30,186 nucleotides of DNA from Thermomicrobiales bacterium (lineage in GTDB: Bacteria; Chloroflexota; Chloroflexia; Thermomicrobiales; CFX8): assembly GCA_035304105.1 (NCBI GenBank), contig DATGQR010000391.1:1-30186 (forward strand). The letters run 5' to 3'. Under the pieces are notes generated by a model. That model did no database searches, was not told where the DNA came from, and saw only the letters and a program-made list of their open reading frames with translations. Shown here one piece after another: positions 1,007 to 6,856 of the stretch. A program made the translations under genes and the position numbers. The number at the start of each line of letters is the position of its first letter. The first letter of the stretch is position 1.

Positions 1007-2050
1007 CTAGTTCATCGTCAGTGCGCCGTCCCAGCCGTCCACCGTGTCGAGGGCGCGGCGGATGTAGCCGGCCAGCTCGTCGACGTTGGGCTGGCCGTCG
1101 ACGCGGTTGAGCGGCCGCTCGTAGGGTGGCAGGCCGGGCTCCAGGGCCCGGATCGCGGCGTGGATCTCAATGTGTGGGTCGGCGCCGTCGAGCGGCGGGG
1201 CGTGGACCAGCAGCGCCCGGTTGAAGCCGCGCGATTGCCAGCGCAGCACCATCTGGATGCCGCCGCGCTGGGCGTCGGCGACCAACTCGACCGGGTGCTG
1301 CCAGCGGTCGGTCGCCTGGGTCGCGGCGCTGGCCATGATCCGCGCCAGCTCCGAGCGACGGCTGATCTGCTCGCGGGTGCGGTAGACCTGCCCGGTGCGC
1401 TCGGCGTAGCCGCGGCGGACCTCCTCGCTGCGCCAGGCCAGCAGCCCGCCAGCCAGGATGGTGGCGTGGACGATCGCCACCGGGATCATGATGCCCGGCG
1501 TCTCGGTGCGGTAGATCTGGCGCCAGTCGCCGCCGTCGCCGGCGCCGCCGAGCGCGTCGAGGACCGGGTAGAAGATCAGCGCGTTGGCGATCTCCAGCGC
1601 GCCAAAGAGCAGCAGCACGTAGTTGATCGGTGCGCGCGTCGGCTTGAACCAGCCGATCGTCAGCGCCGCCAGACCGATGGCCACGCTGACGGCTGGCCCG
1701 GCCAGCGCGATGAAGCCTTGCTCGTAGGGCGTCAACCCGTAACCGTTGTAGGAGACGTAGCCATAGATGAAGTAGAAGCCGAAGTCGAGCACTTCGCGCC
1801 CGACTGCTCGGATCGCGGCGGCATGCCCCAACTCGTGGAGGATGATGCTGGCCGGGAGGAGGACGAAGATGACTAGCCGCAGCAGGCGGCTGCGCGTGTC
1901 GGCGGTCATCGGCTCGGCGAAAAGCGTCTCGTGGTGACGCACGGTGTCCCAGAGCGTGGCGATCGACGCCAGCGCCATGATCAGGCCGAGAATCCCTACT
2001 TCTTGAAAGATCGTGTCCGCTCCCGGATGATGCCGTTCTGAGGCCGCCAC
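1007..2050 (-). CDS. M50-family (site-2 protease-like) membrane zinc metalloprotease with extra soluble C-terminal domain
   Basis: LHELGH (HExxH) in a TM segment, ALAGP motif, several TM helices, GDW motif; GTG start. Confidence 0.8.
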   Translation of the reverse strand: MAASERHHPGADTIFQEVGILGLIMALASIATLWDTVRHHETLFAEPMTADTRSRLLRLVIFVLLPASIILHELGHAAAIRAVGREVLDFGFYFIYGYVSYNGYGLTPYEQGFIALAGPAVSVAIGLAALTIGWFKPTRAPINYVLLLFGALEIANALIFYPVLDALGGAGDGGDWRQIYRTETPGIMIPVAIVHATILAGGLLAWRSEEVRRGYAERTGQVYRTREQISRRSELARIMASAATQATDRWQHPVELVADAQRGGIQMVLRWQSRGFNRALLVHAPPLDGADPHIEIHAAIRALEPGLPPYERPLNRVDGQPNVDELAGYIRRALDTVDGWDGALTMN

Positions 2051-2095: not shown

Positions 2096-2419
2096 TCACT
2101 CCGCGGGGAAGTCGGACCCGTCGAGCGGGCGCGCGGTGAAGGCCAGCGACGTGGCGTCGGGTTCGGCGTCGCGCAGCCAGACTGCGAAGCGGCGGCCGTC
2201 ATCCAGCACCAGCACCCTGGCATGGCGCATCGCGAGCGTCCCCGTCCGGCCGGCTTCGGCAGCCTGCAGGCGGCCGGAGACCGACAGCCGCTCGCTGCCG
2301 TCGCCGCCCGCTTCCCAGCCGAGCGTGAGCGCATAGAACACCGGGATCGCCCGGGCGTGCTGGCCGACCAGCAGTGTGCCCAGGCCGCGCGCGACCTGCC
2401 GCGGACGAGGATCGGACAT
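2096..2419 (-). CDS. Hypothetical protein (107 aa)
   Basis: ATG 2419 with AAGGA SD; alternating beta-strand pattern; no family recognised. Confidence 0.65.
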   Translation of the reverse strand: MSDPRPRQVARGLGTLLVGQHARAIPVFYALTLGWEAGGDGSERLSVSGRLQAAEAGRTGTLAMRHARVLVLDDGRRFAVWLRDAEPDATSLAFTARPLDGSDFPAE

Positions 2420-2460: not shown

Positions 2461-2675
2461 AAAGAGGAGGCCCCGCGGCGCGGTGAAGGGTGGCGCGCCG
2501 CGGGGGTGTCGTTCCCTTGTCCCCTGGCTAAGGGGAACGGTCGAGGCGATACACTCCGACGGAGGGGCGAAAGAGCGGGGACCGCCGCCAGAGTGCCGGG
2601 TCACACTTGGTCGGATGTGACCCTGGGGGTAGGTGGGTGGAAAGACATCGGGGTGCCTTGTTCCACCTTGGGTGC
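2461..2675 (-). ncRNA. Candidate structured sRNA or leader RNA with C-rich loops
   Basis: Extended -10 TGCTACTAT (2690-2682); stems at 2636-2667, 2598-2623, about 2510-2540 and a 12-bp stem at 2471-2505 followed by CCUCCUCUUU. Confidence 0.5.
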
Positions 2676-2809
2676 AATTTGATAGTAGCAACGCCCCGCC
2701 GGAGCGTCGTGATGCCCCGGTCCAACGCCCGGGTATATGTCGAGTCATGCCTTTCGGATGCGTCACTCAGGGGCGCGACGACCCCGAAAACCGTACAATC
2801 CCTCTCACC

Positions 2810-3658
2810 ATGCACGCGCCACATCCGCCGATTCGAGGCTCGCTTCAAGAGTACGGCCGGGGGATCGCCGGTGGCCTGCTGTTCAGCCTGCCGATGCTCT
2901 ACACCATGGAAATGTGGCAGTTCGGCTTCATCCTCAGGCCCGAGCGGTTGCTGCTCTACGCGGTCATCAGCTTTGTCCTGCTGCTGGGCTACAACCGCTA
3001 TGCCGGGCTCCACCACGATGCCAGCTGGGCGGAAGTGGCAATCGACTCGGTCGAGGAGATGGGCATCGGCATCGTCCTCTCGGCGCTCTTCCTGGCCATC
3101 CTGGGCATCATCACGCTCGACATCGCGCTCTCCGAGGCGGTCGGCAAGACGGTCATCGCCGGGATGACCGTGGCGATGGGCGTCTCGGTCGGGACCGCCC
3201 AACTCGGCGCGCCGCCGGAAGATGAAGACGAAGCTGCAACAGCCCGGCGCCGCGAGCGCCCGTCGTCATTCCCCGAGCAGCTCGTCGTCGCTTTCATCGC
3301 CGCCATCCTGGTAGCCGGCAACATCGCGCCGACCGACGAGATCGCCATCCTGGGAATGTATCTGGGCACGCTGAACCTGGTCGCGCTGGTCCTGCTCTCG
3401 CTGGCGCTGATCGCCATGATCCTCTTCTTCGCCAACTTCACCGGGGCCGGCCGGCATGTGCCCGAGAACCTGACGCTGGCGACGGTCCTGGGCCGCTCGG
3501 CATCGTTCTACGCCGTCGCGCTGCTCGTTTCGGCGCTGATGCTGTGGTTCTTCGGCCGCTTCGAGGGCGCCGGGCTGATGCAGTGCCTTTCGGCGACGAT
3601 TGCGCTCGGCCTGGTCGCCAGCTTCGGCGCGTCGGCTGGGCGGCTGCTGCTGCAATGA
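2810..3658 (+). CDS. TIGR02587 family (DUF2391) integral membrane protein
   Basis: RGIAGGLLFSLPMLYTMEMW and NIAPTDEI motifs, about 8 TM helices; start chosen at ATG 2810, 10 nt downstream of TACAAT at 2794-2799. Confidence 0.85.
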   Translation: MHAPHPPIRGSLQEYGRGIAGGLLFSLPMLYTMEMWQFGFILRPERLLLYAVISFVLLLGYNRYAGLHHDASWAEVAIDSVEEMGIGIVLSALFLAILGIITLDIALSEAVGKTVIAGMTVAMGVSVGTAQLGAPPEDEDEAATARRRERPSSFPEQLVVAFIAAILVAGNIAPTDEIAILGMYLGTLNLVALVLLSLALIAMILFFANFTGAGRHVPENLTLATVLGRSASFYAVALLVSALMLWFFGRFEGAGLMQCLSATIALGLVASFGASAGRLLLQ

Positions 3659-6639: not shown

Positions 6640-6856
6640 ATGACGCCGGCCGCCTCGTGCGATTCGAGGCGGCCGGAGAGTAAGGAGGGTGTGGGGGTGT
6701 GTTGTGGGCCGTTCCGGCCGGGGGAAGGCGGAACAGCTCCTCGCTCTTCTGGCGTGGAGAGTTCGCGTGCCGGGTCCCGGCCGTGGGCGGCGGGGGGGAC
6801 GCCGCCGGGGTGGTGTGCTCTGAGGCCCGGCGCGCGAAACGCCATCACGTTTTCTA
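6640..6856 (-). ncRNA. Candidate sRNA with C-rich loops and an anti-SD tract
   Basis: Loops UCCCCCC (stem 6786-6806) and UUCCCCC (stem 6708-6737), single-stranded CCCUCCUU (6689-6682), terminal 12-bp hairpin 6646-6676. Confidence 0.6.

Follow-up and report, generated by a model that had tools for sequence, protein, structure and literature searches.

A genus-restricted candidate family of C-rich, five-hairpin RNAs in Thermomicrobiales

RsaE/RoxS-type sRNAs carry several unpaired C-rich motifs within one RNA. These C-rich sRNAs of Firmicutes (PMC6158497) serve here as a comparison system. The 6C sRNA of Actinobacteria acts chaperone-free through C-rich loops (PMC6486639), and the cuckoo RNAs of Alphaproteobacteria are defined by CCUCCUCCC in each of 2-4 hairpin loops (PMC4615179). 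Searches of the literature found no described regulatory sRNA from Thermomicrobiales and no description of the RNA reported here, which is encoded on the minus strand of a 30,186-nucleotide stretch of DNA (the window) from a Thermomicrobiales genome with a GC content of 67%.

A reading of the letters alone (the sequence-only reading) had proposed a multi-hairpin minus-strand RNA at 2461-2690 and had named the promoter, hairpins H1, H2, H4 and H5 and the tail at the positions listed in Table 1, all of which were confirmed. Folding of the minus strand revealed a 220 nt segment of −94.9 kcal/mol (z −4.6) that none of 200 shuffles equalled, and homologues covary in its stems. The extended −10 motif lies at a constant position relative to the RNA in every member of the family described below, four of which have an additional TTGACG −35 box, and the same motif is found upstream of tRNA-like genes elsewhere in the genome. 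When the 170 extended −10 sites of the genome were ranked by downstream folding, this site came third, and its RNA is the most C-rich among the top 15. Two other such sites, on G000:C102 (−) and C528 (+), precede very stable 215-nt folds (z ~−8 and ~−5). The upstream box is retained irrespective of the divergent neighbour, and the two distances at which it precedes the promoter TG, 47-48 nt in the window's clade and 59 nt in the G003 clade, differ by one helical turn; scanning the genome for a regulon of this box found none. The RNA is present in a single copy per genome, with no paralogue detected in its own genome by BLAST or nhmmer. The view that the gap holds no credible ORF was borne out, as the 256-codon minus frame has a GC2 of 0.74 and homologues carry frame-breaking indels. 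Small-peptide coding by the RNA region was rejected because these indels break every frame among the homologues.

A plain DNA search of 61 relatives returned no homologue, missing even the true ones, and homologues were instead reached through synteny and through relatives of the 107-aa protein encoded downstream. This identified nine further homologues (ten members in total), all apparently from one Thermomicrobiales genus. The Thermomicrobiales MAG G004 carries a 61%-identical copy between its DUF2391 and M50 genes, without the 107-aa gene. Of the 44 pairs in the fold predicted on the window sequence by itself, 43 are kept in G004; 8 pairs carry double changes, and the 10 single changes are all to or from G-U, none being to A-C. 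A model of the window and G004 then matched a locus in G003 (32 bits), the third copy, which precedes a relative of the 107-aa gene with 29% identity. Starting from relatives of the 107-aa protein, six further distinct copies were located in metagenome contigs. In an alignment of these nine members (window, G004, G003 and the six metagenome copies; identity 43-90%), pairing is kept in 90.8% of cells and double changes are seen at 24 pairs, a result matched by none of 500 shuffles and compared with <50% in slid controls. As the nine-member structure was chosen on the alignment itself, the G004 pairs are the cleaner test of covariation. G-U pairs outnumber A-C (43 versus 9) across the alignment, which fixes the strand: because G-U wobbles are tolerated on one strand only, selection acts at the level of a minus-strand RNA. 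The tenth, diverged member (L106, 25.7 bits) lies outside the training set in the same neighbourhood, and its M50 gene is 71% identical, within the range of the genus. Overall, copies of the RNA occur beside at least four different neighbours. The covarying stems sought in homologous intergenic regions are thus present, and the comparative data show a predicted five-hairpin minus-strand RNA under selection for structure. Judged from sequence comparison, it is a real and new genus-restricted family of structured RNA that was previously uncatalogued.

Table 1. Features of the RNA locus and its neighbours (window coordinates).
Feature	Position	Strand	Remarks
Structured non-coding RNA	2461..2675	−	~215 nt (211-223 nt across nine aligned members); folding and covariation
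Extended −10 promoter, TGnTAnnnT	2682..2690	−	10/10 members; predicted start ~2675
Upstream box, candidate regulator site, consensus MTGTAYCC	2731..2738	−	8/10 members; putative function
Hairpin H1, C-rich loop L1 (2653-2648)	2636..2667	−	12/12 pairs kept in G004, 3 double changes
Linker J1/2, conserved CCYCA motif	2624..2635	−	possible pseudoknot partner of L4 (41/45 cells paired; cognate test not significant)
Hairpin H2	2598..2623	−	GGG/CCC base near-invariant, top variable; homologue covariation
Hairpin H3, large C-rich loop L3 (2582-2574) with invariant CGC	2551..2596	−	double changes in 7/10 outer pairs
Linker J3/4	2540..2550	−	anti-Shine-Dalgarno-like CCUC in 5/9 members (alignment); not conserved in L067
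Hairpin H4, G-rich loop L4 (2529-2519)	2510..2539	−	AGC and GG invariant in nine aligned members
Hairpin H5, perfect 12-bp	2471..2505	−	probable 3′ end or terminator-like stem; 96% of cells paired, double changes in 5 pairs
Pyrimidine tail, CCUC then short U run	2461..2470	−	conserved in most members; no terminator call
107-aa orphan gene, predicted six-strand beta barrel	2096..2419	−	downstream of RNA; linked but decaying in window's clade
M50 peptidase gene	1007..2050	−	neighbour; own conserved −10 at 2071-2064
DUF2391 gene, divergent	2810..3658	+	neighbour outside RNA unit; own −10 at 2793-2799

Among the hairpins first drawn, H1, H2, H4 and H5 were retained and the third was replaced. The conserved H3 helix pairs 2596-2585 with 2562-2551 (−23.4 kcal/mol), versus −9.6 kcal/mol for the hairpin originally drawn, a weak alternative fold that keeps just 3-6 of 8 pairs in the more distant homologues. 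The stem, U run and CCUC of the tail are present as read; the cuckoo likeness seen in this tract was not upheld, and the tract is no canonical intrinsic terminator, the terminator scan making no call at the tail, where four bases separate stem and U run. In the nine-member alignment, unpaired sequence is conserved in the tail, in J1/2 and in the loops L1, L3 and L4. All but the last are C-rich single strands, and it is these that are likely to be the working parts, because they are kept while the stems vary freely. In the near-identical strain L006, two substitutions in H1 (window 2660 and 2642) could pair U-A by a bulge shift.

L1 and L3 carry closely similar C-rich motifs, to which the G-rich L4 is complementary. 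L3:L4 can form 9 bp in the window (p 0.02), with L1:L4 weak in the window's clade, and L1:L4 can form 8 bp in the G003 clade. Both sides of L1:L4 are changed in L106 and can form 10 bp (−19.7 kcal/mol, shuffle p 0.001), compared with −6 to −12.5 kcal/mol for its L4 with the L1 of other members; its L3 and J1/2 are altered in the same way as L1. Cognate tests across the ten members, uncorrected and made on related sequences, gave p 0.013 for L3:L4, 0.056 for L1:L4 and 0.09 for J1/2:L4. A J1/2:L4 pseudoknot, good by column count, was rejected on its non-significant cognate test. The patterns are suggestive of internal masking of the C-rich seeds, with the partner of L4 shifting between clades. 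A fuller version, in which the twin seed loops L1 and L3 would be held by L4 as a G-rich decoy in alternative kissing states, or would link molecules into oligomers, so that a tertiary switch gates target pairing, is a speculative and rather improbable one.

We searched the family, order and class, all GTDB species, phage contigs and plasmids for credible members outside the genus and found none, plasmids yielding no copy of the RNA at all. When 401 genomes of the class, all GTDB species and IMG/VR were scanned for motifs, only the known members and chance matches came up, and no RNA was found in two genomes of the genus that are 82-85% complete. As a genome-wide search with model R1 missed G003, these absences are read as 'not found'. 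A hit in another genus (L081, genome G011; E 0.003 per genome) was not accepted, as it overlaps a coding start and resembles an H5-like intergenic palindrome. This palindrome (L081:1690-1730), which is like the H5 of the G003 clade, lies between the end of an ABC permease gene and the start of an RDD-like gene and is possibly a shared terminator or of REP type. Two further loci were not counted: L062, at most a diverged 3′ remnant, and L107, with 196 upstream bases lacking the RNA.

The second RNA of the window, on the htrA side at 6640-6856, is alike in size, C-rich style, folding (z −4.55) and genus, and differs in its fold and promoter region. The possible link through a shared 10-mer, already called weak in the sequence-only reading, was not borne out: this 10-mer occurs 15 times in the genome, varies among members and is a chance match, its sharing being equalled or beaten by 17% of resampled pairs, and neither of the two valid models matched the 6640-6856 RNA. 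Two unrelated RNAs 4 kb apart suggest more than one origin of chaperone-free C-rich sRNAs in this lineage.

Structure searches with the 107-aa protein named no family and no function, returning generic barrels (phage neck, PilZ-like, DUF4873-like); the best match to the predicted fold has a Z of 7.1 and an rmsd of 3.3 over 83 aligned residues. This ~100-aa barrel family is restricted to the genus, and the window's protein lacks the PWLE motif found in most relatives. Its gene is polymorphic among near-identical strains, with 4 of 8 changes non-synonymous and a 3-residue deletion in some. The flanking genes, DUF2391 (window 2793-2810, +) and M50 (2071-2050, −), each have a conserved TACAAT −10 box lying only ~10-15 nt upstream of the called start, which suggests near-leaderless mRNAs for both across the genus.

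The RNA had been proposed as either an sRNA or an attenuating leader, and we favor the standalone sRNA because the RNA persists where the 107-aa gene is absent or broken and because no covarying pairing of leader to ribosome site was found. Between the window and L068, identity is 91% for the RNA, 88% for M50 and 74.5% (nt) for the 107-aa gene, as in intergenic DNA, and this gene drifts at a neutral rate in the window's clade. L068 has an in-frame stop in the gene (in a low-coverage contig) and an intact RNA, and in G004, which lacks the gene, the RNA is followed by M50 with its own conserved promoter, so selection appears to act on the RNA itself, in the window's clade at least. A cis-acting leader, whether attenuator or riboswitch-like, would sense a signal through loop-loop contacts and set read-through at H5 into the 107-aa gene. 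In keeping with such a leader, 8 of the 9 aligned members lie just upstream of that gene, although most were found through it, and wherever a homologue of the gene is preceded by enough DNA, the RNA lies there on the same strand at a distance of 51-111 nt, a linkage kept across several rearrangements. The tail would be a weak terminator that allows read-through, L3 is complementary to the H5 3′ arm in nine members (cognate p 0.026, uncorrected), and L4 is able to pair with the H5 5′ arm. Yet the first of these pairings is poor in L106, the second is not favoured in cognate combinations (p 0.99), nor is pairing between RNA segments and their own downstream start region, and the spacer of some members holds a −10-like hexamer. 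The constant downstream gene expected of an attenuator or riboswitch was not found, given G004 and L068, and we regard the leader as unlikely.

A standalone, genus-restricted sRNA that base-pairs in trans, 6C-like and independent of Hfq, is the reading to which we give an even chance, by analogy with 6C. Transcription from an extended −10 promoter of housekeeping type, which the upstream box may tune, would yield an RNA of ~215 nt that folds into the five hairpins and presumably ends at or near H5 and the pyrimidine tail. Several mRNAs may be targeted at their G-rich ribosome-binding regions by its C-rich strands, which would pair there without Hfq and lower translation, as 6C does. Within one molecule, L4 may pair with either L1 or L3 and so mask the seeds until a better target or a signal opens them. 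Hfq was looked for in 5 genomes of the genus and not found. A genome-wide target ranking, circular and with starts chosen by SD score, was uninformative and gave no specific target that stands out. The C runs could instead be kept for internal tertiary pairs. That would suit a compact or oligomeric structural RNA or a protein-binding decoy, its C loops kept for intra- or intermolecular kissing with L4 or for recognition by a C-binding protein, a role that the 107-aa barrel may originally have filled, and the tight conservation of length and spacing, the invariant unpaired AGC, GG and CGC, the concerted change of L1, L3, J1/2 and L4 in L106 and the long-standing linkage to one small protein all speak for it. 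L4 prefers L1 in the G003 clade and L3 in the window's clade, a shift that would not be expected of a fixed scaffold, and the 107-aa protein is dispensable and its fold matches no RNA-binding family clearly; we consider this reading doubtful. ToxIN/CptIN loci consist of a promoter, a pseudoknot RNA, a terminator stem and a small ORF. The locus has this layout, with a pseudoknot-capable RNA and a terminator-like stem, and the RNA would then be the antitoxin in a type III-like toxin-antitoxin system whose other component is the 107-aa protein, and the copy in G004 would be an orphan antitoxin. The alignment, however, contains no tandem repeats or internal repeat array, nothing of ToxN or MazF type is among the generic barrels of the listed folds, searches of phage contigs and plasmids yielded no copies, and selection is stronger on the RNA than on the 107-aa gene, which leaves this pairing very improbable. 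Chance hairpins, REP-like palindromes or DNA binding sites without a functional RNA might be expected in GC-rich intergenic DNA, and an H5-like palindrome does occur at the unrelated place in L081. Against a non-functional origin stand the covariation with its one-strand G-U bias, the single copy per genome and the conserved promoter, and we hold it to be highly unlikely.

The RNA adds a covariation-supported new family in a lineage without detected Hfq, and loop-loop masking, if real, would explain what keeps a sticky C-rich regulator from pairing indiscriminately in a transcriptome of this GC content. Its weight is limited by its narrow range (one uncultured genus) and its predicted function.

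No known family had been matched to the RNA in the sequence-only reading, and the Rfam 15 covariance models, run against the window and ten homologue loci, likewise gave chance matches only, none of them at or near the gathering score. A 6S RNA was rejected, as five tandem hairpins without a closing helix differ from one long rod with a central bubble. A separate, sub-threshold 6S-like locus is found in each of 5 genomes of the genus (L094-L098, one per genome; 23-34 bits, cut-off 46), exemplified by G000:C195:7804-7892 (−) = L097; these are probably a divergent Thermomicrobiales 6S RNA missed by Rfam. SRP RNA and RNase P RNA were dismissed because genuine copies lie elsewhere in the genomes carrying the RNA (SRP is not assembled in G000). 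The RsaE/RoxS-type sRNAs share several unpaired C-rich motifs in one RNA and differ in size, fold and host, with no Rfam match. The likeness to 6C lies in a high-GC host, no Hfq and two C-rich hairpin loops that could pair with G-rich mRNA regions. In contrast to 6C, this RNA has ~215 nt, five hairpins, variable C runs of 3-6 and, in the same molecule, a G-rich loop that complements its C loops; it has no Rfam match to 6C, and loop 1 of G004 lacks a C run. As in cuckoo RNAs, hairpins whose stems vary follow one another in a row, and anti-SD-like single strands are conserved. The proposed cuckoo likeness nonetheless fails on the defining element, as no loop of any member holds CCUCCUCCC; CCUC lies in the linkers and tail, the hairpins are not one repeated module, and the host belongs to another phylum. 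Most plausibly, then, the RNA would act in a mode like that of 6C or cuckoo RNAs, while being a member of neither family.
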